64,000 nt of DNA from Myxococcota bacterium (GCA_039186435.1 JBCDAA010000002.1:2248-66247); one strand, 5' to 3'; shown: positions 2,052 to 50,775, counted from the first letter of the stretch. Translations and numbers: made by a program. Notes: generated from the letters alone by a model not told the origin.

Positions 2052-2489
2052 ATGACCCACAGCCAAACGCTCGTCACATCGTTCGCGGTACTTTCGTTTC
2101 CGCTCTTGGGATGCTTCATCGACTCCGAGGAGATCGGCGCATCGCTGCCGTGCATCGCCTGCCATCTCGAGGAGCAGCAGCCACCGATCGTTTTGGGGGA
2201 CGTCGTGATTCCTGTGCAGGCCACGCATCGCATGGATCTCGGCGGCGTCTTCTCCGTGGAGCGGTCCGCTCGCTCCAACGATCACACCCTCGAGGAGAAC
2301 GTGACGATCATCGGCGAGGACGTAGTGGTTCACGCGACGGTCGATGGAGTCGACCTTGGCGACGCGCGCTCGGTCGCAATCGAAAAGGCCGCGCACGAGA
2401 TTCGCTACGCGGCCGAGTTCGACGACGGTGTCACCCTCTCAGGGACGCTGTGCTTTCAGGTGGAGAATCAGCCGGCGTCTTCGCCGTGA
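2052..2489 (+). CDS. small lipoprotein with a single CXXCH motif
   Basis: ATG 2052 gives MTHSQTLVTSFAVLSFPLLGC (lipobox). Contains CIACH. Third-position GC is high. The antisense ORF 1878-2396 looks like a shadow. The 3' end overlaps the convergent His-rich gene by 22 nt. Confidence 0.5.
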   Translation: MTHSQTLVTSFAVLSFPLLGCFIDSEEIGASLPCIACHLEEQQPPIVLGDVVIPVQATHRMDLGGVFSVERSARSNDHTLEENVTIIGEDVVVHATVDGVDLGDARSVAIEKAAHEIRYAAEFDDGVTLSGTLCFQVENQPASSP

Positions 2490-3223
2490 TGGTGTCCTGC
2501 GTCTTCGCCGTGATGGTGTCCTGCGTCTTCGCCATGATGGTGTCCGGCGTCTTCGCCATGATGGTGTCCGGCGTCTTCGCCGTGATGGTGACCGGCGTCT
2601 TCGCCGTGATGGTGTCCTGCGTCTTCGCCGTGATGGTGTCCTGCGTCTTCGCCATGATGGTGTCCGGCGTCTTCGCCGTGATGGTGTCCTGCGTCTTCGC
2701 CGTGATGGTGTCCGGCATCCGGGTCGCCGTGACCCGAGCTCGCGATCAGCGCGACCAGCATGATCTCCCGCGGCGCGTCTTCACCAAAGGTCAGCATGTA
2801 GGTGTCTTCGTCGTGAAGGTGCATGCGGTGATCGGCGTCGAATACGTCCGGACACACGCCGTGCTGAAGCCCGCTCGTCAGGCCAACCACACTGAGGTTT
2901 TCAAGGGCATCGCGATGGCTCGTGAAGAGCGCGATGTCCGAGTGGGGAACCGCAAGCGTGAGCATTGCGTAGGCCGGCCCCGACTCCGGCAGCGTGATGC
3001 GATACATCGTTTCCCCGAAGGCGATCTGCGCCGCACTCGCACCTTCTTCGGTGGCGGACGCGGCGACGTCGACGGGCGCCGAGGACGCAACACTGCAGGA
3101 GGACATCGCCGCGCTGTCGAGCGAGCCAACCGGACGGGAGTCGCCGCTCCCATCCGAGCAGCCGAGACCGAGAAGAATCGCGAAGGAAAGGGCAAGTCGC
3201 ATGAGGCGGACCCTAGCGGCCAT
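2468..3223 (-). CDS. His-rich repeat lipoprotein, C-terminal (HHHGEDAG)x10
   Basis: Signal/lipobox MAARVRLMRLALSFAILLGLGCS (alternative ATG at 3202). The C-terminus is HGDPDAG followed by ten identical HHHGEDAG units, then the stop at 2468. Confidence 0.8.
   Translation of the reverse strand: MAARVRLMRLALSFAILLGLGCSDGSGDSRPVGSLDSAAMSSCSVASSAPVDVAASATEEGASAAQIAFGETMYRITLPESGPAYAMLTLAVPHSDIALFTSHRDALENLSVVGLTSGLQHGVCPDVFDADHRMHLHDEDTYMLTFGEDAPREIMLVALIASSGHGDPDAGHHHGEDAGHHHGEDAGHHHGEDAGHHHGEDAGHHHGEDAGHHHGEDAGHHHGEDAGHHHGEDAGHHHGEDAGHHHGEDAG
2471..2731. repeat. 24-bp tandem repeat x10 (plus one diverged unit) encoding HHHGEDAG
   Basis: Units of cgtcttcgcc(g/a)tgatggtg(t/a)cc(t/g)g read directly. 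All six frames are open across it, which generates several spurious track ORFs. Confidence 0.95.
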
Positions 3224-4535
3224 CGCTTGACGCGCGAAGCGGCAATTCGTCGCGGTCGCGCAGCGGAACAATCCACGCCTTGGGTGCAAAACCATCCGAA
3301 ACGCGACTCAGGTCAACCTCGGGGTCGATCAATTGCTGGCCGGGGCGTCCGTTGAGAGACGCCCACGCGTCCGCGCGAACCTCGACCTCACCACGTCCTT
3401 CTTCATTCCATCGATCTCTCAAGTAGTGCGCGAAACTTAAGATCAGGTCGGGCTGCGTTGGCACCATGCGCAGCTGAAGGGGCGTGAGGAACTCGCGCGG
3501 ATGCACCGTCGTTTCGCCGCGTTCGCTGCGCACGAGAAAATCCACCTGCCCAACCTTCTCCATGAGCATCACGTTCCAGGCGAAGCGATAGCCCTGCTCG
3601 TGCCAGCAGCGGTCGCCCCCGTAGAAGTGCTGCCGCAGCGGAAGCAAAAGCTGAAGGGCGAAGTGCACGCCGAGGAGTGCAAGGGCCGGGCGAGAAAGCG
3701 TGGACGGTTTGACCGCGACCGACGGCGTGGGGATGCGCTTCACGAAGCGTCGTGGCCAGCTCGGATCAAGAAAGAGCGACGCCGCAATCGTCATCAAGAG
3801 CGGAAAGATCCCGATCGGAAAGAGCAGGCCGGTCACGAGGTGGAAAACGATCACTGCAGCGAAGGCGAGGGCGCGCGTTCGTTTCCAGAGAAGCGCGAAG
3901 GGCACAAGCAGATCGAAGAGCATGCCGGCCCAGCTCATCGCAAAGGCGAGCCAAGGTTCATCCATGACCGGCCCGACAATCGGGGCGTCCGAGTAGCGGG
4001 CGAGCCACGTCCCGAGCGGTTCGGCGCGAAGGAGCCAGTCCTCACGAATCTTCGCAGCGCCCGCAAAGACGTAGACGAGCCCAATTTGAAGTCGGAGCAC
4101 ACGGAGCGGCCAGCGGGGGATGGGAGCGGAGCTCTTGCGACGCGCATCGAGCGAGCCGGCGTTGCCGAGGGGCATGAAGAAGAGCAGCGCCGCTAGCACG
4201 CTGACGAGGTAGTAGTGATTGAGATAGTTCGTGCGGTCGATCAGCTCGACGTAGGTAAACGAGACAAAGAAGAGGGCGACGCTGAGGCGATAGCGATAGC
4301 CGGCCGCGATGCCGAGGGCGGAGATCCCAATGACGCCAAAGAGCATGTGCATGCCCACCGGCCCAAGGGGCTGGATGAACTCGAGCCCCGGGTAGGGGAA
4401 CGTGATCGCCGGGGCGATGTAGAGGTCGTGTACCCACCCTTCGAGCTCGTAGCGAAGGACGTTGAACGCCATCGCCAACCCGAAGAGCACCCGAAATGCG
4501 ATGAGCGACGCCGGATCGTGGCGCGGAGCGGTCAC
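3213..4535 (-). CDS. HTTM domain membrane protein (vitamin-K-dependent gamma-carboxylase-like)
   Basis: 440-aa polytopic membrane protein. The N-terminal LIAFRVLFGLAMAFNVLRY...FPYPGLEFI...ELIDRTNYLNHYYLVSVLA layout matches the HTTM domain as I recall it. Confidence 0.75.
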   Translation of the reverse strand: MTAPRHDPASLIAFRVLFGLAMAFNVLRYELEGWVHDLYIAPAITFPYPGLEFIQPLGPVGMHMLFGVIGISALGIAAGYRYRLSVALFFVSFTYVELIDRTNYLNHYYLVSVLAALLFFMPLGNAGSLDARRKSSAPIPRWPLRVLRLQIGLVYVFAGAAKIREDWLLRAEPLGTWLARYSDAPIVGPVMDEPWLAFAMSWAGMLFDLLVPFALLWKRTRALAFAAVIVFHLVTGLLFPIGIFPLLMTIAASLFLDPSWPRRFVKRIPTPSVAVKPSTLSRPALALLGVHFALQLLLPLRQHFYGGDRCWHEQGYRFAWNVMLMEKVGQVDFLVRSERGETTVHPREFLTPLQLRMVPTQPDLILSFAHYLRDRWNEEGRGEVEVRADAWASLNGRPGQQLIDPEVDLSRVSDGFAPKAWIVPLRDRDELPLRASSDGR

Positions 4536-4545
4536 TAGACGTGCT

Positions 4546-5619
4546 CTAGTCGCCGTCGGTCGGATTGAACGTCACCGTCACCGAGAGCGCCCCTGCGACC
4601 TCCGTCGAGAGGAACCGTTGGAGGTCGCGGATTGCGTCGTACGCAGCGTCGACGTCGCCCGGCGCCATGGTGATCGCGTCTCCTAGGGACGTGGGCTCCA
4701 GCGCTTCGAGTCGCGCGATGGCGGTGTCGATCCCCTCGGTCACCTGCGGGTCGAGCTCCGGTCGGCGAGAGAGCAACCAGTCACGAATGCCGACTCCATC
4801 GACGCCGTTGAAGTCGCCGCTGTAGACGTTGCGAACGCCGCGGAGAGCATCGATGGCGTCACCGAGCGAGCGCTCCGAGAAGGGCGCCTCGAGGAGCGTG
4901 AGATCGGGGACTCGATCGTTGCGGCGACCCTGGGGCTTTCCGACCTTGAGCTCGCGCACGTTTTCGATCGTAAAGACCATTTGGTCGAAGACGACGCTCG
5001 CAGCAGCGAAGACACTTCGATAGGGCGTCGTTCCGTTGACAAGGGCTCCGCCGTGGTCGCCGCCTTCGGACGCCCAGGCGTCGACGTATTCCCCGGCTTG
5101 GCGGTGAAGATGCGCGGTCAGAGCGAGGGCATACTCGCAGCGGCGAGGCTCGGCTTGAAGCGCGGCGAGGGGATCGTCCGGGGAAAAGAGTAGGTAGCCG
5201 AGGGCGGGAAAGCCCTTCGCGCCGCTTCCCATTCCGTCGAGGGCTTCCACGCTAAGCGGAGCGCTGTCCGCGAGGACGTCGTCGACAGTGGGCGTTCGCG
5301 CCGGCCAGAAGTCGACGGTGGGCCCAAGGCGCAGCGGGTTGTCCGTGTGCGGTCCAAAGGAAAAGGGCTCGGCTTGCTTGAGCGGCGCCTTGGCGGCGCC
5401 GAATGCGTCCCGAAGTGCTGCGAATCCGGCTTCGTCGGGCGCCGCGCAGAACGCTTCAGTCGTCTGCTGGAGCGCTTCGGTCTGCACCACGAAGTCTTGG
5501 TAGGTGGGAAGGAAGACCGTGTCCGTCATCGACTGGAGCATCGCGGAACGATCGAAATTGTCGGTCGTGCCGCCATCGCTGCAGGAGAGAAGGACGAACG
5601 CTAAAAGCACGCGGTTCAT
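4546..5619 (-). CDS. imelysin-like (M75 / IrpA-like) lipoprotein
   Basis: Internal ATG 5619 gives MNRVLLAFVLLSCSDGG and a 4-nt ATGA overlap with the upstream stop. The LPTYQDFVVQTEAL...AFCAAP...LKQAEPFSFGPH segment resembles imelysin-fold proteins. Confidence 0.7.
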   Translation of the reverse strand: MNRVLLAFVLLSCSDGGTTDNFDRSAMLQSMTDTVFLPTYQDFVVQTEALQQTTEAFCAAPDEAGFAALRDAFGAAKAPLKQAEPFSFGPHTDNPLRLGPTVDFWPARTPTVDDVLADSAPLSVEALDGMGSGAKGFPALGYLLFSPDDPLAALQAEPRRCEYALALTAHLHRQAGEYVDAWASEGGDHGGALVNGTTPYRSVFAAASVVFDQMVFTIENVRELKVGKPQGRRNDRVPDLTLLEAPFSERSLGDAIDALRGVRNVYSGDFNGVDGVGIRDWLLSRRPELDPQVTEGIDTAIARLEALEPTSLGDAITMAPGDVDAAYDAIRDLQRFLSTEVAGALSVTVTFNPTDGD

Positions 5620-6989
5620 AGAGACTCCAAAAAGGCGATCAACCGCGCGCGGTCTGCTTCCGAAAGGGCGCGGAATGCCTCGCGCGCTTCCTCTGCTTCT
5701 CCGCCGTGCCAGAGGATCGCCTCGGCGAAGCCGCGCGCTCGCCCATCGTGGAGGAGGTTCTGATGACCGTTGACCGACTCGAGGTAGCCGAGGCCCCAGA
5801 GCGGCGGCGTTCGCCACTCCTGTCCATCCGCTTCAAACACCGGGCGCGCATCGGCGAGGTCGGGGCCCATGTCGTGCAAAAGCAGATCGGTGTACGGCCA
5901 AATCGATTGATCCGAGAGTTCTGGAAAGCCCTCGAGCGTTCCCGTTTGGTGGTTGGCCACGTGGCAGCCATCACAGCTGAGGCGCCGAAACACCGAGCGT
6001 CCGCGGAGTACCTCCGATTCGAGCGCGCGAGGGCGAAACGGGGGCGCGAGGGTGCGACTGTAGAACGAGACCTTCTCGAGAAGCTCGTCGTCAATTTCTG
6101 GGGCGCCACCGTTTGGGGCAGCCGCGCAGTCGTCTTGGCCGGGCGGGCAGTTCTCAACAGGGTGGAGCGACGACGTGATGCCGAGGTCGCCGAAGAACGC
6201 GCCCGCGGTTTGGTGGCGGACGGTCGGCTGCTCGCTCTTCCAGCCGAAACGACCGATCGCCATGGCGCCAGCCTCCGGATCCCAAACCCGCTGAATCTCT
6301 CCGCTGATCGCGTCGCCGTCCGCGTCATCCGGATCGGCCAGTTCTTCCAGACGGGCCGCCGGGATCGCCTCGAGCAGCCCGAGGCCGATCATGTGCGGCG
6401 CGACGCGTGGCGAAAACTGAATCTCCGATGAAAGGGGGCCGAACGAGAGGTCTTCGAAGACGTACTCCGGTCGCCGCAGCGAATAGGGCGTTCCGTCCTC
6501 GTACGCGCCCGCTTCTTCGGTCCATCGAACAAAGACGCGACCTTCGCCTGGAACTTCACGAACCCCGAAGGGCTGAAACTGGCCGCCATACGCAGGATCC
6601 GGAAGAGGTCCGCCGTGCTCGTCGACCCCCGGAATCGAAAGGCGAATCAACACGCTCGTCAGCGTCGCGTTATCCTCCGGTGGCGTGCCTCGCCCGTCGC
6701 GAAAATGACAGGTCGAACAGGCGGCTCCGTTGAAGGTCGGGCCCAGGCCATCGCGCGCGGTCGTTGTGGACGGGGCGGTGACCCAGGCCTGGCCGAAGAA
6801 GGCGTTGCCCGTAAAAAAAGGCCCACGCCGTTCCGAGCTCAGGTTGGAGGACGGAAAGGTGTAGGCCTGTGACCCGCTCACGAGCAGGAGCAACGTCGTG
6901 TCTCCGCCGGGTCGCTCTTCCCCTGGTTCGAGCTGCGGGTCGGATCCACAGGCAACCAGGAGCGCGAGGCAGGCGGAGACACGGGTCAT
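5616..6989 (-). CDS. di-haem cytochrome c, DUF1111 (thiol-oxidoreductase-like) lipoprotein
   Basis: Lipobox LALLVACGS. Two CXXCH motifs (CSTCH, CDGCH). Size and GLGPTFNGAAC context are typical of DUF1111 proteins that accompany imelysins. Confidence 0.8.
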   Translation of the reverse strand: MTRVSACLALLVACGSDPQLEPGEERPGGDTTLLLLVSGSQAYTFPSSNLSSERRGPFFTGNAFFGQAWVTAPSTTTARDGLGPTFNGAACSTCHFRDGRGTPPEDNATLTSVLIRLSIPGVDEHGGPLPDPAYGGQFQPFGVREVPGEGRVFVRWTEEAGAYEDGTPYSLRRPEYVFEDLSFGPLSSEIQFSPRVAPHMIGLGLLEAIPAARLEELADPDDADGDAISGEIQRVWDPEAGAMAIGRFGWKSEQPTVRHQTAGAFFGDLGITSSLHPVENCPPGQDDCAAAPNGGAPEIDDELLEKVSFYSRTLAPPFRPRALESEVLRGRSVFRRLSCDGCHVANHQTGTLEGFPELSDQSIWPYTDLLLHDMGPDLADARPVFEADGQEWRTPPLWGLGYLESVNGHQNLLHDGRARGFAEAILWHGGEAEEAREAFRALSEADRARLIAFLESL

Positions 6990-6992
6990 GCG

Positions 6993-8160
6993 TTACTCAG
7001 GATTCGGGACGGTGAAGCCGAGCGCAAAGAAAACCTCGCTGAGCAGCATCTCCTGCTCGCGAAGCGAATCGATGAGCGCCTGAACACGCCCATTTCCTTC
7101 GGTGTTGCCCGGGGAGATCTCGAGATCGAAGGGGGGCTGAAGCGCGCGCGCAAGGTCCACGCTGGTCTGAATGCGCGTGCGGAGGTTGTCGGCGAGGGTC
7201 GGATCGAGCTCGCGCACGACGTCTTCGATGCTGGTGCCGCTCACGACCGAGCCGTCGATGCGGGTGTAGCGACCGAGGTAGATGTTCTGGACCCCGATGA
7301 CGTCGAAGAGCATGTCGTTGTGGGTGTTGTCGGAAAAGCAGCTGTGCTCCTCTTCCTGGTTGCCCGCGTCGAGGGCCGCCTGAAGACGCTCGCCGGCGGT
7401 CTCGAAGCCGCTGAGAACGATCATTCCCGTGAGAATGCGCTGGAGCGCGACGTCCTCGTCGACGGTCTCCATGTCCTGGCGGTAGTTCGACTGACCGGGC
7501 GCCCACGCGTCGACGAGATCCGAGAGGTTGCTCTCGAGAAGGTCGCCGGCGGTCGTAAGGTACTGCCCACGGCGGTCGGCGTTGTCGGCCGTTGAGAAGT
7601 CCTCGAAGGTGCGCTGGCCGGGCATCCGCATGCTCGGCTCGGTGAGGTCCTGGCCCCAGAGCAGGAACTCGATCGGATGCCAGCCGGCCGCCACGTCCGC
7701 GTCGCCGCCTTCGCCGTTGGCGCCGCTGATCGAATCGGCGGAAATCGTAAATCCGGTGTCGTTGACCCGGCCTGCGGTCGCATCGCCATCCACGTAGTCG
7801 ACGGTCTGCTCGTCCATGGGCCAGGCGTTGATGAGTCCTTCCGGGTCTCCGTCCATGCCGTCGATGGGGCCGTCGTAGAACCGGTACACCTCGGTCTGGA
7901 GGTAAGGCTCGCGGGCTTCAAGCCACACGTCCTTTGCCGCCTGCAGCGTATCTGCAGATGCGCCGTCGACGAGCGCCTGAAGTGCGGTGTTCATCCGCTG
8001 GATCTCCGTGAGGGAGTCCTGGTAGCTCGCGTGCACGATTTCGTTGTAGGTCTGAATCGCTGCCGCGGTCGTATCTGAGGATCCATCGCCGTCGTCGCCG
8101 CAGCTAAACGCCAGCAGGCTGAGACCCAAAGCCATCGTTCGCCTTGTCATTGTACTCTCC
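6993..8160 (-). CDS. imelysin family (M75, EfeO/IrpA-like) lipoprotein
   Basis: ATG 8160, preceded by AGGAGA, gives MTRRTMALGLSLLAFSCGDDG. The longer 8579 start adds an Arg-rich non-signal extension. There is a 3-nt gap to the next gene. Confidence 0.7.
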
Positions 8161-8164: not shown

Positions 8165-8189
8165 GAAATTGAAAATTGTTTTCAATTTC
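8165..8189. promoter_or_regulatory. perfect palindrome GAAATTGAAAA-TTG-TTTTCAATTTC, Fur-family (7-1-7-like) operator candidate
   Basis: 11-nt arms are exact reverse complements. The inner TGAAAAT-T-GTTTTCA resembles TGATAAT-N-ATTATCA. Lies 5 nt upstream of the imelysin operon start/SD. Confidence 0.6.
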
Positions 8190-8271
8190 GCCTTTCCTAC
8201 CAGGGAAAATCCTGAGTGCAATCGCTGTGTTGGGCCCCCGTGAGAAATCCCTCGAAGGATCTTGAGGTTTT

Positions 8272-8299
8272 TGAAAATCAATTTCATTAATGAGGTCAT
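8272..8299. promoter_or_regulatory. Fur-like box pair (TGAAAATCAATTTCA plus AATGAGGTCAT)
   Basis: 12/15 match to TGATAATCATTATCA by my count. Followed by an AATGA-N3-TCAT core that overlaps the ATG of the small ORF. Confidence 0.55.
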
Positions 8300-8528
8300 G
8301 CCCAAGCGACACTCGTTGGCCCGCAATTCTTTCTGCCGAATCGATCAGCTCTGCGGCTGTGGTCGAGTCATCGAGGTTTCCGTGGGGGCCTTCTCTTTGC
8401 GCTTCGACGCCGGGTCGCTGCGAAAGCTCGGCAACACGATCAACGAGGCGCTGAGCAAGCTCGAACGTGAGTCTGAAGAAGCGGCGTTGCTCCTCGACGT
8501 GAAGCCAGCGCCACGAGGGCAGGCATGA
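8298..8528 (+). CDS. candidate small protein (76 aa), unknown function
   Basis: The ATG overlaps the end of a Fur-like site. Third-position GC is coding-like. Sequence is MPKRHSLARNSFCRIDQLCGCG...VSVGAFSLRFDAGSLRKLGNTINEAL. No family recognised. Confidence 0.35.
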   Translation: MPKRHSLARNSFCRIDQLCGCGRVIEVSVGAFSLRFDAGSLRKLGNTINEALSKLERESEEAALLLDVKPAPRGQA

Positions 8529-8680
8529 ACGCCGCGCACGTTGCCCACTTCGAACTGGACGGTGACGTGCGCTCTCCAACTCGCTCGCCCATACTGGCAG
8601 CGGTGGGTAGTGGAGCTGGCGTGGGTTCTACGCGCTGCGGGCAACGCGTTTCTCCGCTTGAACACCCCCGATGATCTCGA

Positions 8681-10810
8681 ATGAGAGCCAACGACCGAAG
8701 CGCGCAACCGGTTGCGCGGCATAGAGCAGTTCTCGCGTTCACCCTGTGGGCGTCTGCGGCTCCGTTCACTTCGGCGCAGGATACGGAAGCGGAAGACGAG
8801 TTCACCCTTGATGAGCCGGGGGAACTCACTCTCGACGACGCTGGGGATATCCAGCTTGAGGGCGACCTTTCGGAGGACATGGATGACCTCATGCTCCGCA
8901 CGGTTGTCGTTACGGGGACGCGACGCGAGCAACCTCTTGAAGACCTTCCCGTCGCGGTTGAGGTCATCACTCAAGAAGAGATCGATCGCTCGGGCGCGGA
9001 GACCCTCGCGGAGCTCCTTGAAGAACGTGCCGGGCTTCAGACCTTCAACGCGTTTCGAGGGCAGGGCGTTCAGCTTCGCGGCCTAGAGCCGGAGCACACC
9101 CTGATTCTTGTTGATGGTGAGCGCACGATTGGCCGCATTGACGGCACCTTGGATCTCACCCGGTGGCAGCTCGAAGATGTCGAGCGGGTTGAGATTGCCC
9201 GTGGCTCGGCGTCCGCGCTTTGGGGAAGCGACGCGCTCGCAGGGGTCATCAACATCATTCCGCGCCGCGGTCAGGAGGGCTGGACCGCGTCGGCAAGAGC
9301 CACGTACGGCTACCAAGATCGGCGTCGAAGCAACCGGCGCTCGAACTTTGAGGGCGGACCGCGTATCGACGACGGAGAGGACCTCCCCGACGACAGCTAC
9401 GGCGGAACCTACGACCTTGTGGGACGCCTCGGGTACGGCACCCAGCGCGCTGGCGGAACGGTTTTCCTTGGCTACCACCGCCTCGACGGCTTTGACCTCG
9501 ACCCGCGCGATGGAGCCACGAACGCGCCGGATACCGAAACGATCACCGCCGGTCTTTCGGGGTGGGCGAAGTTCGGGCCCACAACGCTCCGACTTCGATC
9601 TGAGATCCTCCATCGCGACGACGTTATTTTTGAAGCGCGTGGGCCACGGCTGATCCGCGAGCGTCTCAACCGAACCGACACCGCGAACGTCAGTCTCACC
9701 CCGGTCATCGACTTCGACCGCGGACAGCTCACGATGCGGGTGGCGTACTCCCGTTTCCGCGATCAGTTTCTCCGGCGGATTGTCGGCGAAGAGCAGATCG
9801 ACCCCACGACGATCACCACCGAGCAGCTGGGTCAGCTTCAAGGGCGGTACGTGCACTCGTTTAACGACGCGCACGTTTTCACCATTGGCTACGACACCTC
9901 CCTTGAGACGCTTCGAACGCCTCGCCTTCAGCGCACCGGAACGCGCGCCCGCCTCGCGCCCTATGTTCAGCATGAATGGACTGTGTCGGAGGAGCCCTAC
10001 GTGGCCGTGGTTCCCGGCATTCGTCTCGACGCGGACAGCTGGTTCGGTACGGCCGTCTCGCCAAAGGTCGCGGTACGGGTCGACCCCCACGAGAAGCTCG
10101 TCTTGCGCGCGTCGGGCGGACGAGGCTTTCGTGCACCGGACTTCCGGGAACTTCTGCTTCAGTTCACCGACAACGAGAGCCTCGGCTACATCGTGTTTGG
10201 GAACCCAGACCTAGAGCCCGAGACCAGCTGGAGCGTGGATGGCGGTGCCGAGCTGCGTCTTGGCCGCGCTTGGCTCGGCGTGACCGGGTACGCGACCTAC
10301 GTCGACGACCTCATCACGGTAGACCTCTTCGAGGTGGACGGCGCGGTTTCCCGCTTTGGCTACGTGAATGTCGGAAGCGCACGGACTCGCGGCCTTGAGG
10401 CTCAGGCTCGCTTCGCTCCCCTCCGCGGCGGGGATCATCGTTTTCGCATCGACGCCTCGTACACCTTTCTCGATGCGGACGACCGCACCAACAACCGACC
10501 CCTTCCCGGTCGCGCGCGGCACGCGGGAACGCTTCACCTTCGCTATCAACATCAGCCCTCTGGCATCAGCGCCCTCTGGCGGTCGCGACTCTCGGGCGAG
10601 CGCATCTTCTTCGATGGCGACGAGCGGATTGAGGCGGAGCCCTTTCTCTCGCTGGATCTGCGCCTAGAAAAGAACTTTGCCGGTGACCGGTTCCGTATCT
10701 TCGTCGGCGTCGACAACGTACTCAACAACGGCGGCACGTTTCTCACGACCCGCCCGCGAACATTTTGGTTCGGCGTCGCCGCCCGGCGCCGAGCGGAGGA
10801 ACAAGAATAA
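8681..10810 (+). CDS. TonB-dependent outer-membrane receptor
   Basis: Signal peptide ending AAPFTSAQ, an acidic linker, a plug domain (VVVTGTRREQPLEDLPVAVEVITQEEIDRSGAETLAELL), and a ~550-aa barrel region. Confidence 0.9.
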   Translation: MRANDRSAQPVARHRAVLAFTLWASAAPFTSAQDTEAEDEFTLDEPGELTLDDAGDIQLEGDLSEDMDDLMLRTVVVTGTRREQPLEDLPVAVEVITQEEIDRSGAETLAELLEERAGLQTFNAFRGQGVQLRGLEPEHTLILVDGERTIGRIDGTLDLTRWQLEDVERVEIARGSASALWGSDALAGVINIIPRRGQEGWTASARATYGYQDRRRSNRRSNFEGGPRIDDGEDLPDDSYGGTYDLVGRLGYGTQRAGGTVFLGYHRLDGFDLDPRDGATNAPDTETITAGLSGWAKFGPTTLRLRSEILHRDDVIFEARGPRLIRERLNRTDTANVSLTPVIDFDRGQLTMRVAYSRFRDQFLRRIVGEEQIDPTTITTEQLGQLQGRYVHSFNDAHVFTIGYDTSLETLRTPRLQRTGTRARLAPYVQHEWTVSEEPYVAVVPGIRLDADSWFGTAVSPKVAVRVDPHEKLVLRASGGRGFRAPDFRELLLQFTDNESLGYIVFGNPDLEPETSWSVDGGAELRLGRAWLGVTGYATYVDDLITVDLFEVDGAVSRFGYVNVGSARTRGLEAQARFAPLRGGDHRFRIDASYTFLDADDRTNNRPLPGRARHAGTLHLRYQHQPSGISALWRSRLSGERIFFDGDERIEAEPFLSLDLRLEKNFAGDRFRIFVGVDNVLNNGGTFLTTRPRTFWFGVAARRRAEEQE

Positions 10811-16299: not shown

Positions 16300-16308
16300 C
16301 CCTAAGTT

Positions 16309-16327: not shown

Positions 16328-16339
16328 GAAAGCAACCCG

Positions 16340-37752: not shown

Positions 37753-37836
37753 ACCGTCTTCTTAGTCCTGATGCGTAAGTACGCCAGCGTGGACTCCGGC
37801 GAAGAAAACGAGCCCAATCGGGGTGCTCGACTCAAC

Positions 37837-38305: not shown

Positions 38306-38351
38306 GCAATTGAGAGAACGCACGAGAACGAGTGCGCGCGCCCTTCTATAT

Positions 38352-38370
38352 GATAATGAAAGTCATTAGC
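38352..38370. promoter_or_regulatory. Fur-like box GATAATGAAAGTCATTAGC (best match in window)
   Basis: 16/19 to GATAATGATAATCATTATC. Lies 14 nt upstream of the methyltransferase/ABC-exporter operon. Confidence 0.7.
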
Positions 38371-38383
38371 GATTGGAGCCGCA

Positions 38384-39211
38384 TTGAAAGACATCGCCGT
38401 CGAGCTTGGGCCCATTCAGGAGACCCTTCTGATCCCGCTTCTGGGACGCGCTGAGGAGACCCTCAAGAAGCGCGCTCTCCTCCGCGACCCGAAGGCCGTC
38501 GAGATCGTGGGTCGGCTCAACTATGACTTCTCGAAATGGCACGGCACTTCGAGCCTCGTTGGCGCATGCGTTCGGGCCCGTCTCTTTGACGCGATCGTCA
38601 TGTCGTTCCTCAAGGAGAACCCAGAGGGGACCGTCGTTGAAATCGGTGCGGGGCTAAACACGCGTTACGAGCGTCTCGACAACGGAACGGCCCGCTGGGT
38701 GGAGCTCGACCTTCCGGACAGCATGGCGCTTCGTCGTGAGTTCTTCGAGGATACCGAGCGCCGGACTCTCGTTACGGGAAGTGTTACCGACCCGGAATGG
38801 CATACGGCGGTCGGGGACGGTCCCGTCTGCTTCGTGTCGGAAGCGGTGTTGATCTACCTCGATGGGGACCAAGTTAAGGACGTCTTCGCGCAGCTGCTCG
38901 AACGCTTTTCGGGCGCGTGGGTTGTCATGGACACGGTGTCGTCCAAGATGGTGGACAGCCAAGCGAAGCACGACGCGATGCGCAAGCTTTCGGAGGAGAG
39001 CTGGTTTCGATGGAAGTGCGATGACCCGGCGAACCTCCACGAGTGGGGGCTGTGGCTGCAGCGGTCGCAAACGTTCCTCGATGCGTCAGACGAAATCGTC
39101 GAGGATATGCCGTGGGCGTATCAGATGATCACCCGATACGCGCCGTGGCTCATCCGTCGGCAGGTGAGCGGATATCGCATCAACCGTTTCGTACTTGGGC
39201 CGCCCGAGTGA
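38384..39211 (+). CDS. SAM-dependent methyltransferase, TcmP/LCM-like
   Basis: TTG start. Paralogous in layout to 18989-19801 (see that entry). Confidence 0.6.
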   Translation: MKDIAVELGPIQETLLIPLLGRAEETLKKRALLRDPKAVEIVGRLNYDFSKWHGTSSLVGACVRARLFDAIVMSFLKENPEGTVVEIGAGLNTRYERLDNGTARWVELDLPDSMALRREFFEDTERRTLVTGSVTDPEWHTAVGDGPVCFVSEAVLIYLDGDQVKDVFAQLLERFSGAWVVMDTVSSKMVDSQAKHDAMRKLSEESWFRWKCDDPANLHEWGLWLQRSQTFLDASDEIVEDMPWAYQMITRYAPWLIRRQVSGYRINRFVLGPPE

Positions 39212-42665: not shown

Positions 42666-42685
42666 TGCGAGGGGACGCGTCCTAG

Positions 42686-42706
42686 AGAGGCGAACAGATC
42701 GCCTCT
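42686..42706. terminator. hairpin between convergent genes (AGAGGCG-N7-CGCCTCT)
   Basis: 7-bp stem and 7-nt loop in the 39-bp gap between the ABC exporter and the two-CxxC gene. No clear U-tract. Confidence 0.35.
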
Positions 42707-43115
42707 AGTTGAGGTGAACCTCGCGTTGAAGGCGAAGCTGTTGGAGGAGGGCGCGCACGAATTCGATCGCCCCGAATACGGAGCCCTCAAAGCAGGCGAC
42801 GCAAACTCCGTCGAGACGGTTCTGACGCGTGTCGAAGCCAACGGGAACGAGGGCTTCGAAGGAGCTGTGGGTACAGCGGATGCAGAACTCGTTTTTTTCC
42901 GGCCGGGCGAGGAGCGTGATGTCGCCGGCGCCGTGGATGCCGGTGGTGATGAGCGGCTTGACCACGGACTGAGGTTTGTTTCGGATCCACTCGCGATAGA
43001 GAAGCCGTATTGATTGGTCGGCCATCGCGTTTTGAAGGACGACTTCGGCGAGATTTCCGAGCAGGTACACCAACGTGTCCCGCGGGAAGCCGCCATCACT
43101 CCACTCTTCGGTCAT
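42705..43115 (-). CDS. hypothetical cytoplasmic protein with two CxxC motifs
   Basis: 136 aa. CIRC and CVAC lie ~26 residues apart. Preceded by a Fur-like box. No family recognised; any FhuF-like or metal-cluster idea is a guess. Confidence 0.5.
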   Translation of the reverse strand: MTEEWSDGGFPRDTLVYLLGNLAEVVLQNAMADQSIRLLYREWIRNKPQSVVKPLITTGIHGAGDITLLARPEKNEFCIRCTHSSFEALVPVGFDTRQNRLDGVCVACFEGSVFGAIEFVRALLQQLRLQREVHLN

Positions 43116-43136: not shown

Positions 43137-43155
43137 CGATAAGGATTTTCATATT
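43137..43155. promoter_or_regulatory. Fur-like box GATAAGGATTTTCATATTC
   Basis: 14/19 to the consensus. Lies ~20 nt upstream of the two-CxxC protein gene. Confidence 0.6.
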
Positions 43156-43202
43156 CGATAACGCGGATGGCTCTCTTGATGAAGCGATTTAAGTGTTTGA
43201 AA

Positions 43203-46803: not shown

Positions 46804-46822
46804 GATAGTGATTTTCAAGTTC
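46804..46822. promoter_or_regulatory. Fur-like box GATAGTGATTTTCAAGTTC
   Basis: 13/19 to the consensus. Lies 32 nt upstream of the small-membrane/PepSY gene pair. Confidence 0.5.
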
Positions 46823-46854: not shown

Positions 46855-47118
46855 GTGGCGGCGCAGCCTCAAACGAAACGAGTGATCGCGTGCGTTAGTG
46901 CGGGGTTCTTCCTTGCGTTGCTCGTGGCCCTTGGAGCGACCGCATGGCTTCCGGAAGGGGCAGGTAAGGTCAACAACCTCGTATTCCCGGCCGTCGCCTT
47001 TCCGCTGGTGTGGGTTGGCATCGCGGTCTTTCTTCTGGGAGCGCGGCGTCGTCGTGCGTGGGCGATCTCGTTGGGTGTTGCGCTCCTCGCCGCGTTGCCC
47101 GCGCTGATTCGGCTATGA
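46855..47118 (+). CDS. small membrane protein (3 TM)
   Basis: 87 aa, hydrophobic. The stop overlaps the PepSY start (ATGA). Small membrane proteins commonly precede PepSY-TM genes. Confidence 0.5.
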   Translation: MAAQPQTKRVIACVSAGFFLALLVALGATAWLPEGAGKVNNLVFPAVAFPLVWVGIAVFLLGARRRRAWAISLGVALLAALPALIRL

Positions 47119-48623
47119 CGCGTGAAGTCGGTGTTCGTCGGGCGCTCTACGAAGCCCATCGCGCGGTCGGACTCGCGTTCGGGTTCCTCGGCCTTCTGCT
47201 TGTGTTCAGCGGGGTAGTCGCGATCTTTGTGGACGACCTCGCCGCGTGGGCCGAGCGCGATCGTCACAGTCCTCCGATGAGTGCGTCGGTGGAACGGCTG
47301 GACGAGTGGCTCGCGACGGCTTCCGCCCGCGTCGACGCGGAGCGACGATCGAGCGTGCGCGTCTTTCAACGCGAGCGCGATGCGGTTCTCTTCCTCTTTT
47401 CGAGTGATGGCGACCCCGTCTTCGAGGCGGTTTGGGTCGATCCCGTGGGCGGCGCCCTCGCGGACTATCGCCGAGGAAGCATCGCGGAGATCTTCGCGCC
47501 CCTCGACGGGCAGGTGCTGAGCCGATTCTTCGTCAGCCTTCACGTTCGTTTTCTCCTTCCAGGTCGGGCTGGAAGCCTGAGCGTAGGCCTCGTCGGAATC
47601 ATGCTGCTGCTTCTGGTCTTCACCGGGATCTATGTGCACTGGCCGCGGCGAGCGCTTTTTCGCCGGCCTCGTGGTGCACGACGGCAACTCCTCGGCGCAG
47701 TTCACACGTTAGCTGGCATTTGGACGCTTCCGTTCACCGTACTGATCATCGTGACGGGGGCGTTCTTTAGTTTTGCCACGACGGTTCTTCTTCCAGCGCT
47801 CGCGTTCGCATCGCACGGCGGCGACATCGAGGCAGTTCAGCGCGCGATTCAGACTCCGGTCGAGGTTCCGCCAGCGACCGGTCAGGCCTCCGCGTCGTCC
47901 ATCTGTGCGGATGCCATCGAGCGCACCAACCTCGTGCTGCAGCAGGTGGAACTCAAAAACTGGGGGGAGCAAGACGCGCACGCGATCGTGCGCCTCGCCG
48001 ACCCGGGGTGGGACCTGAGCGGTCGTCTCTTGGCCTACAGCGGCCACACGGGCGAGTTTCTCGAAGAGCGCGGGTCGATTGGCGCCAAACCCTCCGCTGG
48101 CGCGACGACCGTCGAAGCTGTGCGCGCCCTTCATTTTGGAACGCTCGCAGGCGCGACGACGAAGATTCTGTGGGCCATCTTTGGGCTTTTGATGTGCGTG
48201 CTCTCGATCTCGGGGCTTTGGGTTCGTGCTGCCCGCACACGCACTTGGCGATCTCAGCTCCTTGTTGTGGCGTCCGCGTCGTTTCCGTTTGCGAGCTTCC
48301 TCGCGGTGCTGGCCTGGGCGATATCGCCGACGACGACGGCGATGACGGTGGCGTTCGGTGCGGCGCACGTGATCGGCGCCCTTGCGGGTTTGCGTAACCT
48401 GCGCCTCTTGGCCGGTCTAACGGCCACCACTGGGCTCCTCGTTCCCATCGCCGGCTACCTTGCGACGGACGTGAGCCCGTTTGCCGCGCTCGCGCAGTCT
48501 GAAGGCGCCTCTGTGATCGCGGTCGACGGGTTCTGTGTGCTGCTCTCGCTGACGCTCTGGATCCTCATTGCCCGCGGAGTGCGTGCAGCGCCGTCCGAAG
48601 ATCCCAGTCTCGCTCATCGCTAA
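47115..48623 (+). CDS. PepSY-associated TM-helix protein
   Basis: ATG 47115. Has YEAHRAVGLAFGFLGLLLVFSG, VHTLAGIWTLPFTVLIIVTG and ALHFGTLAGATTKILWAIFG signatures. Confidence 0.8.
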   Translation: MTREVGVRRALYEAHRAVGLAFGFLGLLLVFSGVVAIFVDDLAAWAERDRHSPPMSASVERLDEWLATASARVDAERRSSVRVFQRERDAVLFLFSSDGDPVFEAVWVDPVGGALADYRRGSIAEIFAPLDGQVLSRFFVSLHVRFLLPGRAGSLSVGLVGIMLLLLVFTGIYVHWPRRALFRRPRGARRQLLGAVHTLAGIWTLPFTVLIIVTGAFFSFATTVLLPALAFASHGGDIEAVQRAIQTPVEVPPATGQASASSICADAIERTNLVLQQVELKNWGEQDAHAIVRLADPGWDLSGRLLAYSGHTGEFLEERGSIGAKPSAGATTVEAVRALHFGTLAGATTKILWAIFGLLMCVLSISGLWVRAARTRTWRSQLLVVASASFPFASFLAVLAWAISPTTTAMTVAFGAAHVIGALAGLRNLRLLAGLTATTGLLVPIAGYLATDVSPFAALAQSEGASVIAVDGFCVLLSLTLWILIARGVRAAPSEDPSLAHR

Positions 48624-49854
48624 GACTTTGAGGACCGAAGGGAACGAGCCGATCGGGCTGGACCGCGTTCGGGTCGGACGCATCGCCGTTGGCTCGCACA
48701 AAGCGGGCAGTCGAGAACGTCGCTTCCAATCCGGTACGCGGAAGCCGGAAGGAGTACACCTCGCCAAAGTAGTTCGGTGGGGTACTCGTGGGTCGTCCAA
48801 CGAGAAGACCGAGGCCGAAGTCCTCGACTGCGTTGGCGGTCATCATCGCCGAGGAGAGGGTTTGTGGGCCGATCAGAAACGCAACCGGCCCGTGAAAGCG
48901 AAGGGGGTGGGGCGGCGGCTCACGGAGAGCGGGAACCTGCACCAATACCTCGCCGGGTGACGCTTGCTCGTAGTCGACAAACCCTTGCCCTTCGAGGGAC
49001 GCCTGCATTCGTCGCGAGACCTTCCAACGCTTTTCCCCAAACATTCGAAAGGGCTCCTCGGCGACGTACATGAGAACGAGCTCGCCGACGAGGGTGCTCC
49101 CCCCGCGGTTGTCGCGAAGATCGATCACGAGGCCGCGTGCACTTCGGTTGGCCACTTCCTGGAAGAAGGCCGCCAACCATCGGTCGTAGCTTTCGATCTC
49201 GAAGATACCCGACATGGTGCGCACTCGAAGCATCGCGATGTCGCCTTCAAGCCAATACCCGGAGAGCGCGAACTCCTTTGGTTCGGGCGTGGGTTCGTAG
49301 GGTGCGCTCATCGACTCGTGGTTCGCGCGGACTTCGACCAGGTTGTTCCGGCGTCCGAATGCGCGGAGTGCCGCAGGTACGAGAAGTGGAAGTCCCTCGT
49401 CGACTCCACTCGGGAGCTCCGCCGCGATGTGCGGGCGCCCCCAATCGAAGAGCTGCTCGACCGGATGACCACCGATGCGACGTACTTCCGCGCCGGCGGG
49501 AAGCGGACCGTAGGGGCGGTTGAGAAACGCACGCCCCTCGTGGACCACGATCGGGAGTCGCGGGCTCGTTCCGCCGGGGGGCCGAATCGTAGTGTGGGAG
49601 TCGCCAAGAAGTGCTGAAAGTCGCGCGAGGCGGCTGTAGACCATCTCTGGTGTGAGGTGTTCTGGGAGGGTGTCGAGTGTTGCCCGGAACGCGCGCTCGA
49701 GGTCGTCCCGTTCGATGTTCGCGTCGGGTTCAGGGTGGACCTCCCAAAGCACGGACCACCAGGTACGCAGGTCTGCTGCTGCGTCGCTCCGGGACATCGC
49801 AGTCCGCTCAACGGGACTGACGAGCACCACCGCGAGCAGAAACGCGTGCCTCAT
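48565..49854 (-). CDS. S41 family peptidase
   Basis: ATG 49854 gives MRHAFLLAVVLVSP. LVIDLRDNRGGST is typical of the S41 (tail-specific protease-like) catalytic region. The 3' end overlaps the convergent PepSY gene by 59 nt. Confidence 0.7.
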   Translation of the reverse strand: MRHAFLLAVVLVSPVERTAMSRSDAAADLRTWWSVLWEVHPEPDANIERDDLERAFRATLDTLPEHLTPEMVYSRLARLSALLGDSHTTIRPPGGTSPRLPIVVHEGRAFLNRPYGPLPAGAEVRRIGGHPVEQLFDWGRPHIAAELPSGVDEGLPLLVPAALRAFGRRNNLVEVRANHESMSAPYEPTPEPKEFALSGYWLEGDIAMLRVRTMSGIFEIESYDRWLAAFFQEVANRSARGLVIDLRDNRGGSTLVGELVLMYVAEEPFRMFGEKRWKVSRRMQASLEGQGFVDYEQASPGEVLVQVPALREPPPHPLRFHGPVAFLIGPQTLSSAMMTANAVEDFGLGLLVGRPTSTPPNYFGEVYSFRLPRTGLEATFSTARFVRANGDASDPNAVQPDRLVPFGPQSLSDERDWDLRTALHALRGQ

Positions 49855-50255
49855 GGGTCCTTGCGCCACCAGCGGACGCAGTCGACGACGAGGAGGAGGC
49901 TCCACACCACCATCGTCCCGAGAAGGATCGACTGCGACGCTTGCACCGAGCTTTCGGGCGTGACGCCTTCGGCGGCGAAGTGAGCGCCGTTGGCGAGCAG
50001 GAAAAGTGCTGCTGCGATCGTGCTGAGGATCCGGAACACGCGGTGTTTGAGGTAAAGCGTTAGCGTTCCGAGGAGCGCGGGAACCACGTAGAACGTCGCT
50101 TTGAGCCCGACGTTCGACCACGGGACCACGCCCGTTGCGTTGGGGCTTTCAATCGAAACGCCGTAGCGGAGTCCGGTGAGCGAGTAGGTGAAGTGCAGGA
50201 TCATTCCCACGACGAGGACGAACCACAGCACCGCAATCCGAACCTGCCGAGACAT
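49851..50255 (-). CDS. hypothetical 4-TM membrane protein
   Basis: ATG 50255 (GTG 50273 is an alternative). Four hydrophobic helices. The stop overlaps the S41 start. Confidence 0.55.
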   Translation of the reverse strand: MSRQVRIAVLWFVLVVGMILHFTYSLTGLRYGVSIESPNATGVVPWSNVGLKATFYVVPALLGTLTLYLKHRVFRILSTIAAALFLLANGAHFAAEGVTPESSVQASQSILLGTMVVWSLLLVVDCVRWWRKDP

Positions 50256-50352
50256 CAGTGGCTCGCGAGCCACAGGGAGAACGCGACACCCACCAAAACG
50301 GCGACGACGAGAGATGCCATCGCGACGGTGCGATCTTGCTCGTCTCGAATGG

Positions 50353-50688
50353 TCACGGGGCGATCCTTGCCGCGAGTGATTCGGCCTTTCCGCGCACCTG
50401 CCAGCGGAGCCACGACTGAAGCTCGCTGGCGCTCGGAAGGCGATGCGCGACCGGCCAAAGACCGGCGTGGACGTCGGTCCAGGTCCTGAATTTCTCGCGA
50501 TGACCGGACCAAAGCGCGCAGTCGAAGACGCGCGGGTTCAGGGGGCTGGGCAAGAGGATCGAGAGGCCGAGCTCGGGCCAGAGGAGCTGAACGCTGACGG
50601 CGGTGGTCGAGTCCGCGACCCGTAGCTCCCAGGGGCCCTCGAAGGCGACGACTTCGCGCAAACCGGGGTCGTGAATCCCATCCAGCAT
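50353..50688 (-). CDS. small conserved hypothetical protein (paralog of 14429-14788)
   Basis: 111 aa. See 14429-14788 for the shared segments. A Fur-like box starts 5 nt upstream of the ATG. Confidence 0.6.
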   Translation of the reverse strand: MLDGIHDPGLREVVAFEGPWELRVADSTTAVSVQLLWPELGLSILLPSPLNPRVFDCALWSGHREKFRTWTDVHAGLWPVAHRLPSASELQSWLRWQVRGKAESLAARIAP

Positions 50689-50692
50689 GAGA

Positions 50693-50723
50693 CGATATTG
50701 AATGTCATTTTCATTAATTGAAA
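50693..50723. promoter_or_regulatory. Fur-like box GATATTGAATGTCATTTTC overlapping TTTCA-TTAAT-TGAAA
   Basis: 14/19 to the consensus, plus an adjoining short palindrome. Starts 5 nt upstream of the ATG at 50688. Confidence 0.6.
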
Positions 50724-50775
50724 GCGTCCGCGTGAGATTACGCAGGTGGGGTCACTTCGGCCAATCGGAGAAACC

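Follow-up and report, generated by a model that had tools for sequence, protein, structure and literature searches.

Conserved Fur-box-like sites precede the operons of a dense iron-uptake island in a Myxococcota bacterium

The classical Fur box of E. coli, GATAATGATAATCATTATC, is a 19-bp sequence of dyad symmetry that has been modelled both as hexamers and as overlapping 7-1-7 elements. The delta-proteobacterial counterpart, the dFUR box WTGAAAATNATTTTCAW, was defined on the feoAB and fur genes of Geobacter, Desulfuromonas and Desulfovibrio rather than on Myxococcota (Rodionov et al. 2004, PMC545781); these genera represent a related lineage, the former Deltaproteobacteria. In Myxococcus xanthus, FurA (MXAN_3702) is a repressor of siderophore genes (PMC11388931), and putative Fur boxes accompany genes induced in iron competition: MXAN_5023-5026 (TonB-dependent receptor [TBDT], imelysin, HTTM), MXAN_3914/3915 (PepSY/TonB), MXAN_1314-1317 (hypothetical–TBDT–HmuY), and MxcH (PMC9548883 supplement). 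The M. xanthus sites come from heterologous matrices, and the regulon has been called unidentified (PMC9738627). Fur control of imelysin/di-haem operons is documented in P. aeruginosa and V. cholerae (PMC3143127). The XusABC system of Bacteroides comprises a TBDT, a DUF4374 lipoprotein and a PepSY_TM reductase.

The DNA analyzed here, a 64-kb window from an uncultured myxobacterium (Myxococcota), contains a 43-kb gene island with 12 conserved Fur-box-like site clusters, spanning 8165 to 50720 and lying directly 5' of some 14 operons that serve the uptake of haem, siderophores and iron. Judged from the sequence, the AT-rich patches that hold these sites are probably operators for an iron-sensing Fur-family repressor of this bacterium. 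The gene map made here bears out an earlier estimate: 14 transcription units with about 40 genes between them. Unit 1 (2468..8150, minus strand) runs imelysin–DHOR di-haem–imelysin–HTTM–unk244, a synteny kept in the related loci L001–L007, and unit 2 (8298..14788, plus strand) consists of a 76-aa ORF, a TonB-dependent receptor (TBDT1), a triple HmuY, a Kelch gene and unk120. Units 3–5 (14767..21450) are an S8 peptidase (−), HmuY-like–unk491–unk117–LCM methyltransferase (+) and an RCC1 lipoprotein (−); units 6–8 (21588..31765) are methyltransferase–unk187–PepSY_TM–XusB-like P1 (+), unk168 through XusB-like P2 to unk294 (−), and the TonB_C+Plug receptor TBDT2 (+). Units 9–12 (31909..43115) comprise DUF4397–ABC–MacB–HlyD (+), cupredoxin–XusB-like P3 (−), the LCM methyltransferase LCM2 with two ABC exporters (+), and unk137 (−), and units 13–14 (46855..50688) an 87-aa membrane ORF with the second PepSY_TM (+) and unk111–unk140–S41 peptidase (−). 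A NicO-like gene and a Ni-SOD flank the island.

Site A (8165..8189), correctly described by the first-pass annotation as a perfect 11-3-11 palindrome, GAAATTGAAAATTGTTTTCAATTTC, ends 14 bp upstream of the imelysin1 ATG (8150, −) and matches 15/16 specified positions of the dFUR box; its orthologous position is kept in 10/10 relatives. Site B (8267..8291), two overlapping 19-mers including TTGAAAATCAATTTCAT, also matches the dFUR box at 15/16 and lies 6 bp upstream of ATG 8298, where the 76-aa ORF leads into TBDT1–HmuY–Kelch; the 7-1-7 site noticed earlier at 8272-8286 is real, apart from one asymmetric position. The relative L002 has the same two-site divergent layout as A and B. Site C (16309..16327; GATATTGACTTCCAATTTC) occupies the middle of the 40-bp gap between the divergent S8 peptidase (ATG 16299, −) and HmuY-like (ATG 16340, +) genes, and is kept in L007 (at 4362) and L006 (at 628). 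Site D (21464..21482; GAAATTGACTTTCACTATC) is 13 bp upstream of the RCC1 lipoprotein ATG (21450, −), and site E (21534..21552; GAAAATGACATTCAATATC), a 15/19 match to GATAATGATAATCATTATC with the top PWM score of the whole window, is 35 bp upstream of the methyltransferase ATG (21588, +). Site F (29186..29210; CTTAATGAAAGTGAATGGCGATTTC), in the gap between the divergent unk168 (ATG 29177, −) and TBDT2 (ATG 29267, +), is weak and degenerate, at 16.6 bits.

Further along, site G (31875..31893; GATAATGACTTTCAATTTC) lies 15 bp upstream of ATG 31909, the start of the DUF4397 lipoprotein and so of the DUF4397–ABC–MacB–HlyD operon. Site H (38280..38305), in which ATTAATGACTTTGAATATC overlaps the perfect 9-3-9 palindrome TGACTTTGAATATCAAAGTCA already recognized at 38285-38305, lies 14 bp upstream of the cupredoxin ATG (38265, −), and site I (38352..38370; GATAATGAAAGTCATTAGC) 13 bp upstream of the LCM2 start at 38384. 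Site J (43138..43156; GATAAGGATTTTCATATTC) is 22 bp upstream of the unk137 ATG (43115, −). Site K (46804..46822; GATAGTGATTTTCAAGTTC), 32 bp upstream of GTG 46855 of the 87-aa membrane ORF that precedes the second PepSY_TM gene, abuts TCGACA-16-TATGGT (46821-46848), the sole sigma-70-like match. Site L (50694..50712; GATATTGAATGTCATTTTC) is 5 bp upstream of the unk111 ATG (50688, −), the first gene of the unk111–unk140–S41 peptidase unit.

The sites listed in the first-pass annotation all exist, but its list left out the strong site E, included the weak site F, and placed two sites, at 43137 and 50693, one base too low, where 5–7/19 positions match; shifted to 43138-43156 and 50694-50712, these match GATAATGATAATCATTATC at 15/19 each. 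Its counts of 16/19 at 38352 and 11/19 at 29186 hold on the best strand, whereas the others were each one short: 15/19 at 31875, 14/19 at 21464 and 46804, and 13/19 at 16309. Identities to the E. coli Fur box are 13–16/19 at 11 of the 12 sites. The boxes end 5–56 bp (median 13) upstream of start codons, mostly 5–15 bp, and for this reason overlap of box and promoter is geometrically likely; a sigma-70 consensus scan found promoters no commoner than in shuffles.

The shared motif is a symmetric 19-mer, tGAAATTGA-N3-TCAATTTCa, with 6-bp phasing: an inverted repeat that reads either as phased NATWAT-type hexamers or as overlapping 7-1-7 elements, and at 9/12 clusters overlapping matches are offset by 6 bp. 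Fourteen positions match the Fur 19-mer at 13/19 or more; 500 permutations of the consensus that keep its palindrome predict 1.2. The core proposed earlier, AWTGA-N3-TCAWT, is borne out, with 10 matches at no more than one mismatch, all within the AT islands, against 1.7 in dinucleotide shuffles. AT-richness was controlled by shuffling each AT island on its own, composition preserved. Summed matches to the E. coli consensus were 167, where shuffles gave 113 ± 3.6; for the delta-proteobacterial one the figures were 155 and 106 ± 3.3, an excess of z ~15 for both. Taken singly against island shuffles, site F lacks significance with either consensus (P = 0.17 and 0.06), and site H reaches nominal significance with the E. 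coli 19-mer (P = 0.03) but misses it with the delta-proteobacterial 17-mer (P = 0.12). PWM peaks of 15 bits or more, counted without overlap, number 12; all fall within 8165-50712, and there are none in the remaining 21 kb of the window. That nearly every promoter gap carries such a patch was likewise confirmed: 9/10 promoter-bearing gaps of the gene island have a site, compared with 0/9 outside (Fisher P ~1e-4). The one exception is the TetR/S15 gap (43791-43887).

Fifteen loci of other Myxococcota also keep the motif 5' of orthologous genes. For the imelysin ortholog, a site of 15–25 bits occurs within 400 bp upstream in 10/10 Myxococcota loci, where other 400-bp windows have a median of ~1 bit. 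Four of five RCC1-DHOR operons, including that of Labilithrix luteola (CP012333.1), have a site near the called start; sites stand 15–21 bp upstream of the RCC1 orthologs in L022–L024, and overlap the called start in L021. Sites accompany the cupredoxin orthologs in L006, L007 and L008 and the unk111 ortholog of L004, the divergent gap at S41 in L025 holds two, and the HmuY-like/S8, TBDT1 and small-protein orthologs have sites upstream, too. Ni-SOD adjoins sites in L025 and in L008, lying divergent from cupredoxin in the latter. An independent motif built from 30 sites in relatives has a left/right symmetry of r = 0.86. No Fur-family gene was found in the window, nor in the 15 related loci by tblastn with an E. 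coli Fur query.

How well published boxes fit was expressed, for each consensus, as the mean fraction of specified positions matched. The dFUR box fits best (81%), followed by the B. subtilis Fur 7-1-7 (74%) and E. coli Fur (73%); the figures for Zur, PerR, Nur, Mur, Irr and IdeR are 46–67%. The Zur box, at 51–57% against 73–81% for Fur, was set aside, the island having no znuABC, COG0523 or ribosomal-protein paralog genes, as were the PerR, Mur, Nur, Irr and IdeR operators (46–67%; no catalase/ahpC, mntH/sit or hydrogenase/urease targets). With the classical Fur box the sites share length, dyad symmetry, a GA-N3-TGA-N3-TCA-N3-TC skeleton, 6-bp phasing, arrays of up to 25–35 bp, and placement 5' of TonB-dependent receptor, haem and siderophore genes. 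They differ in the half-site, GAAATTGA rather than GATAATGA, in a free central triplet, in lying nearer the start codon than is typical of E. coli Fur targets, and in being AT islands in a 64% GC host. The dFUR box differs in register, being a 7-1-7 17-mer where the dominant form here is a 19-mer with central TGA-N3-TCA, and in regulon, feoAB rather than aerobic-type uptake (TonB receptors, haem, siderophores).

Architecture, consensus fit, positions, gene content and motif conservation all speak for Fur-type operators, as first proposed, and the genes behind them include the TBDTs, HmuY, imelysin/DHOR, PepSY_TM, XusB-like lipoproteins and cupredoxin. Boxes of the Fur, Zur, Mur and PerR types are alike, however, and actinobacterial Zur boxes are akin to the delta-proteobacterial Fur box, so another Fur-family paralog (Zur for zinc, Mur for manganese, Nur for nickel or PerR for peroxide) might bind instead, and the island answer to that signal and not to iron. 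The cupredoxin in the regulon, the Ni-SOD near sites in L008 and L025, and the NicO-like and Ni-SOD genes flanking the island would suit such a paralog. We consider it unlikely: the fit to published Zur, PerR, Nur and Mur boxes is 51–67%, compared with 73–81% for Fur; mntH/sitABCD, catalase and ahpC are absent from the island along with the zinc genes; the genes present are of the haem, siderophore and imelysin kind; the M. xanthus counterparts are iron-responsive and attributed to Fur; and in the PWM scan no strong site turned up at the window's own Ni-SOD and NicO genes.

Less likely still is a dimeric regulator from outside the Fur family, iron-responsive or specific to the surface-protein regulon, acting on an AT-rich palindrome. 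The binder's identity is deduced, and the window does encode a TetR, within the island (43203-43790), and a MerR (60555-61358). But the TetR gap carries a different palindrome, TTATTTATCA-CA-TGATAAATA, and no Fur-type motif, so that the TetR/S15-P4 unit pair, inside the island but without a site, appears to have an operator of its own; the related loci keep the motif with no conserved neighboring regulator; and a 19-bp, hexamer-phased architecture is a hallmark of Fur. That the sites are generic promoter, UP-element or translation-initiation sequence, AT-rich in a high-GC genome and Fur-like through composition, is highly improbable: they do contain TTGAC- and TATAAT-like strings and adjoin start codons, some of them with no Shine-Dalgarno sequence, but the matches do not reappear in composition-preserving shuffles, the symmetric motif has no orientation relative to the gene, none of the nine promoter gaps outside the island has one, and G1, G7, A8, C13 and C19 are near-invariant in the 30 sites, drawn from genomes with only 40–70% protein identity.

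If Fur is the binder, iron the signal and repression the outcome, as we infer, the operator would be a symmetric 19-bp box, (t)GAwAwTGA-N3-TCAwTwTC(a), often lengthened by 6-bp-phased wTGAww hexamers to 25–35 bp, with room for one or two dimers. Because most boxes end 5–15 bp from the start codon, bound repressor would sit across the core promoter, the start of transcription or a very short leader, and so would stop transcription at initiation or early in elongation. A drop in cellular Fe(II) should release the repressor from the DNA, and the ~40 genes of the 14 units would come on together: the haem receptor with its HmuY hemophore-like proteins; the imelysin/di-haem/HTTM operon; Xus-like modules for xenosiderophores, made up of receptor, XusB-like lipoprotein and PepSY_TM reductase; the ABC exporters and LCM methyltransferases; the cupredoxin; secreted peptidases; and the RCC1/Kelch propeller lipoproteins.

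The island is an ordinary but dense iron regulon. Its site density is indeed high, as the first-pass annotation remarked, but the same in kind as in other iron-uptake islands. With the putative M. xanthus FurA regulon it has gene families with putative Fur boxes in common, among them that of MxcH, a TonB_C-containing receptor. It differs in that the units are packed into one island, and in its extras: RCC1, Kelch, four XusB-like proteins, LCM methyltransferases, the cupredoxin, and S8/S41 peptidases. Its value lies in a conserved regulatory link for the RCC1, Kelch, LCM methyltransferase and peptidase genes; so dense a regulon ties several unstudied surface proteins to iron. A bolder reading, which we hold only tentatively, is that this one switch defines an undescribed iron/haem piracy apparatus of marine or uncultured Myxococcota, in which surface lipoproteins of the beta-propeller kind (RCC1 with its DHOR di-haem partner, Kelch, the HmuY-like proteins and the four XusB-like proteins) act jointly with the secreted S8/S41 peptidases, the LCM-type methyltransferases with their ABC exporters, and the cupredoxin. 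Were it true, their joint task would be to strip iron or haem from prey proteins and foreign siderophores, and the RCC1-DHOR(-Kelch) pair would constitute a functional module that is new, conserved and under iron control.

The earlier view that many of these genes have no assigned role in iron biology was overstated, since imelysin/DHOR/HTTM and PepSY_TM are already iron-linked and P1–P4 model as XusB-like. By profile against the PDB, P1–P4 match XusB (E = 7e-5). An AF2 model of the family (pLDDT 75, pTM 0.75) has the DUF4374 beta-propeller fold, and its best PDB match is ferrichrome-bound B. fragilis XusB (E = 6e-16, TM 0.74). BtuG-type propellers trail this by about five to six orders of magnitude (3.7e-10 and weaker), with only Barnesiella viscericola XusB (E = 6.3e-11) in between; Pfam DUF4374 scores fall under the curated cut-off. 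All four have an invariant L-x-x-C-G lipobox-like motif with a lipoprotein Cys, and model as predicted siderophore-binding lipoproteins. P1 lies directly 3' of the first PepSY_TM gene and P4 upstream of the second; the P2 operon is divergent from TBDT2, and P3 is paired with the cupredoxin. The modelled fold, the lipoprotein Cys and, for P1 and P4, the PepSY_TM neighbor are shared with Bacteroides XusABC, whereas sequence identity to Bacteroides XusB is only ~16%, the phylum is another, and four paralogs occur in a single island.

Fur boxes ahead of iron-uptake genes are textbook biology, and the twelve operator-like clusters of the iron, haem and siderophore uptake island (sites A to L, 8165–50712) are probably of just this kind: operators of an iron-sensing repressor of the Fur family. 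We infer the identity of the binder, its metal and the sign of regulation from sequence. The window is 64% GC, at which gene calling by GC3 failed to separate the reading frames; a self-trained codon model, with start codons refined by signal peptides and ribosome-binding sites, finds ~57 genes instead. By Pfam scans, 2.4–50.7 kb is dense in envelope and metal-related genes: an imelysin–DHOR di-haem–imelysin–HTTM operon (8150 to 2468, minus strand); a TonB-dependent receptor, a triple-HmuY protein and a Kelch protein (8298–14788, plus strand); an S8 peptidase; an HmuY-like operon whose last gene encodes an LCM methyltransferase; an RCC1 lipoprotein; a methyltransferase–PepSY_TM operon; a TonB_C+Plug receptor; a DUF4397–ABC–MacB–HlyD group; a cupredoxin; LCM with two ABC exporters; TetR, then an S15 peptidase; a second PepSY_TM protein; and an S41 peptidase.

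All of the sites listed in the first-pass annotation are found in the sequence, most of them at the coordinates it reported; two had been shifted by one base and belong at 43138–43156 and 50694–50712, each matching GATAATGATAATCATTATC at 15/19. The 11-3-11 palindrome it described at 8165–8189 is indeed perfect, as is the 9-3-9 palindrome at 38285–38305, and one strong site (15/19 at 21534–21552) was missing from its list. Its estimate of about 40 genes in 14 transcription units agrees with our own count—40 genes in 14 site-bearing units—and so does its impression that nearly every promoter gap carries a site: the 12 clusters occupy nine of the ten promoter-bearing gaps of the island, versus none of the nine outside it (Fisher P ~1e-4, by our own arithmetic). 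Sites E (21531–21553) and L (50693–50715, reverse complement) are identical across 22 nt, ATGAAAATGACATTCAATATCG, an identity that could reflect either chance agreement between two near-consensus sites or duplication of a short segment.

Among published operators, the closest is the delta-proteobacterial Fur box, WTGAAAATNATTTTCAW, of Rodionov et al. 2004 (PMC545781): the islands match 81% of its specified positions, and sites A (8165) and B (8267) match 15 of 16. The 7-1-7 Fur box of B. subtilis (74%) and the Fur box of E. coli (73%) follow. That a different Fur paralog is at work, or a different metal, is unlikely: matches to the operators of Fur's relatives and of other metal regulators fall to 46–67%, against 73–81% for Fur, with Nur nearest at 67%, then Mur (62%), PerR (61%), Zur (51–57%), Irr (56%) and IdeR (46%). 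A Fur-family gene is absent from the window by Pfam and by tblastn with E. coli Fur, and from the 15 related loci used for footprinting (L001–L010 and L021–L025) by the same tblastn query. Less likely again is a regulator from outside the Fur family. The TetR protein of the island was considered as the binder and rejected, since its own gap is without the motif and has a different palindrome. That gap, between TetR (43203–43790, minus strand) and the operon of the S15 peptidase and the XusB-like lipoprotein P4 (43888–46670, plus strand), is the sole promoter gap of the island that lacks a Fur-like motif; the near-perfect palindrome it contains, TTATTTATCA-CA-TGATAAATA at 43826–43854, is probably TetR's own operator.

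That the sites are generic promoter DNA or an artefact of composition is most improbable of all, because shuffling was done island by island, so that AT-richness cannot account for the match, and the shuffles fall far below the observed identities: 167 summed identities to the E. coli Fur 19-mer versus 113 ± 3.6, and 155 to the delta-proteobacterial 17-mer versus 106 ± 3.3. The core AWTGA-N3-TCAWT, allowing no more than one mismatch, occurs 10 times, always within the islands, versus 1.7 times in shuffles, and the Fur consensus is matched at 13/19 or better at 14 positions, versus 1.2 for palindrome-preserving permutations of that consensus. Individually, site H (38280) reaches P = 0.03 against the 19-mer and 0.12 against the 17-mer, and site F (29186) is not significant against either in the per-island shuffles.

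Inside most AT islands, matches recur at a shift of 6 bp, forming hexamer arrays of 25–35 bp. Our working PWM was fixed at 19 bp and built from nine sites; a 23-bp PWM iterated without constraint was discarded, having drifted to a generic hexamer-repeat model that matched coding regions. Thirty sites taken from other genomes only give the motif tGAAATTGA-ctt-TCAnTtTC(g/a), in which G1, G7, A8, C13 and C19 are near-invariant and the left and right halves are symmetric (r = 0.86). From the end of the box to the start codon, the distances by unit are 14, 6, 9, 12, 13, 35, 8, 56, 15, 14, 13, 22, 32 and 5 bp, such that a bound dimer would have to sit on the promoter, on the start of transcription or on a very short leader; this coverage we infer, since a sigma-70 consensus scan of the window did not locate promoters. 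With boxes so near start codons, a translation enhancer or other 5′-UTR RNA element was also considered. It was rejected because the motif is symmetric, can face either way with respect to the gene it precedes, and in a single copy serves divergent genes at site C (16309), in the middle of a 40-bp gap. Scans of the window for Rfam families and tRNAs returned nothing, and so a riboswitch or other RNA explanation does not apply.

Orthologs of the imelysin protein, 62–71% identical, were found only in metagenome-assembled genomes of Myxococcota (Sandaracinus, Myxococcales or ‘Deltaproteobacteria’ type), a distance at which intergenic DNA can no longer be aligned. All ten of these loci have a 15–25-bit site within 400 bp upstream of the imelysin gene, versus a median of ~1 bit for their other 400-bp windows. 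Equally high scores occur in few other windows, and these precede orthologs of other island genes: TBDT1 (the TonB-dependent receptor of the HmuY–Kelch operon), HmuY x3-Kelch, HmuY-like/S8, cupredoxin (three loci) and the small unk111. Orthologs of the RCC1 lipoprotein, 45–62% identical, were taken from five further genomes (at 10001 in L021–L024 and 7592 in L025), and in four of these, including that of the cultured Labilithrix luteola (CP012333.1), a box lies near the called start: 15–21 bp upstream in L022–L024, overlapping it in L021. The fifth locus has two boxes farther upstream, in a gap beside an S41 peptidase gene. Judged by sequence, then, both the motif, as a cis-element, and its regulon are conserved, because sites recur upstream of imelysin, RCC1 and other island-gene orthologs. 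A DHOR gene directly follows RCC1 in all five genomes, with a Kelch gene next in L021; the window itself has RCC1 on its own, with its DHOR gene inside the imelysin operon. This suggests that RCC1 and DHOR are a functional pair. A metagenome scan with the RCC1 protein was set aside: it returned only 28–36% identical proteins from low-GC organisms, in which PWM matches were compositional noise. Neither the window's imelysin nor the Sandaracinus amylolyticus RCC1 protein had an exact match among recorded proteins.

Much of this gene set has counterparts elsewhere. Imelysin–di-haem–imelysin operons are under Fur in P. aeruginosa and V. cholerae (PMC3143127), and in M. xanthus the myxochelin genes are repressed by FurA, MXAN_3702 (PMC11388931). 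The Fur regulon of M. xanthus lacks experimental definition (PMC9738627). A supplementary table flags, among M. xanthus genes with putative Fur boxes that are induced in iron competition, MXAN_5023–5026 (receptor, imelysin, HTTM), MXAN_1314–1317 (hypothetical, receptor, HmuY), MXAN_3914/3915 (PepSY/TonB) and the TonB_C-containing receptor MxcH (PMC9548883)—the same families as in the island. In Bacteroides, foreign siderophores are taken up by the receptor XusA, the DUF4374 lipoprotein XusB and the PepSY_TM reductase XusC (PMC13142918). The four paralogous lipoproteins P1–P4 match XusB among PDB profiles (E = 7e-5), and the top structural match of an AlphaFold model (pLDDT 75) is ferrichrome-bound B. 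fragilis XusB (E = 6e-16, TM 0.74); on this model, a XusB-like siderophore-capture fold would reach beyond Bacteroidota. Near P2, a GC-rich stretch left uncalled by the gene model (28085–28670) encodes on the minus strand an Ala/Asp/Pro-rich low-complexity repeat (…DAAPEDAAPD…) without a match in the Pfam scan; this is probably either an N-terminal linker of P2 or a small lipoprotein gene in its own right (28015–28794).

The mechanism is not new: motif and regulon logic are familiar, and in M. xanthus a link to Fur already exists for much of this gene set. What is modestly new is a clean clade-specific motif, tGAAATTGA-N3-TCAATTTCa, usable for scanning Myxococcota genomes; the unusual packing of 14 units in one locus; and the conserved recruitment of RCC1-DHOR(-Kelch), LCM methyltransferase/ABC exporter, cupredoxin, peptidase and XusB-like genes. 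We know of no bacterial function for RCC1-DHOR(-Kelch) lipoprotein operons, HTTM in imelysin operons, LCM methyltransferases with ABC exporters, DUF4397 or the small unk111 and unk120 proteins, and conserved co-regulation offers such poorly characterized families testable iron-related roles.

Extra copies of the motif in L022 (15500–15530, 18147–18171 and 20908–20926) and L021 (14796–14814) adjoin DUF3570/DUF4266/DUF2271 genes and lie close to a flavodoxin–FAD–NAD reductase gene, which suggests that the regulon reaches these uncharacterised families too. Ni-SOD lies beside the island (52076–52549), diverges from a box-bearing cupredoxin gene in L008 (365–1600), and lies downstream of two boxes in L025 (6039–7226); upstream of the window's sodN there is only a weak PWM match (~12 bits at 52669). 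Perhaps Ni-SOD belongs to the regulon in some genomes and not in others, and spares iron by taking the place of Fe-SOD. Between unk111 (site L, 50694) and a NicO-like gene, a 435-bp gap holds three ~52-nt direct repeats without an Rfam match (GTGAGCGCGTTCAATGTCGTGAGTGTCAATAAAATCAGGTTGGCTNCTTTTG; 50811–50989, spaced 62–65 bp), followed by a shorter repeat, TTGGCTGCTTTTGAC. Finally, two small unannotated ORFs lie directly 3′ of sites B and K (46804), before the receptor and PepSY_TM genes: one of 76 aa (8298–8528, plus strand) with a Cys-rich N-terminus and no Pfam match, the other of 87 aa (46855–47118, plus strand) with two predicted membrane helices. M. xanthus offers a parallel, in that the hypothetical gene MXAN_1314, with a putative Fur box, precedes a TBDT–HmuY cluster (PMC9548883).
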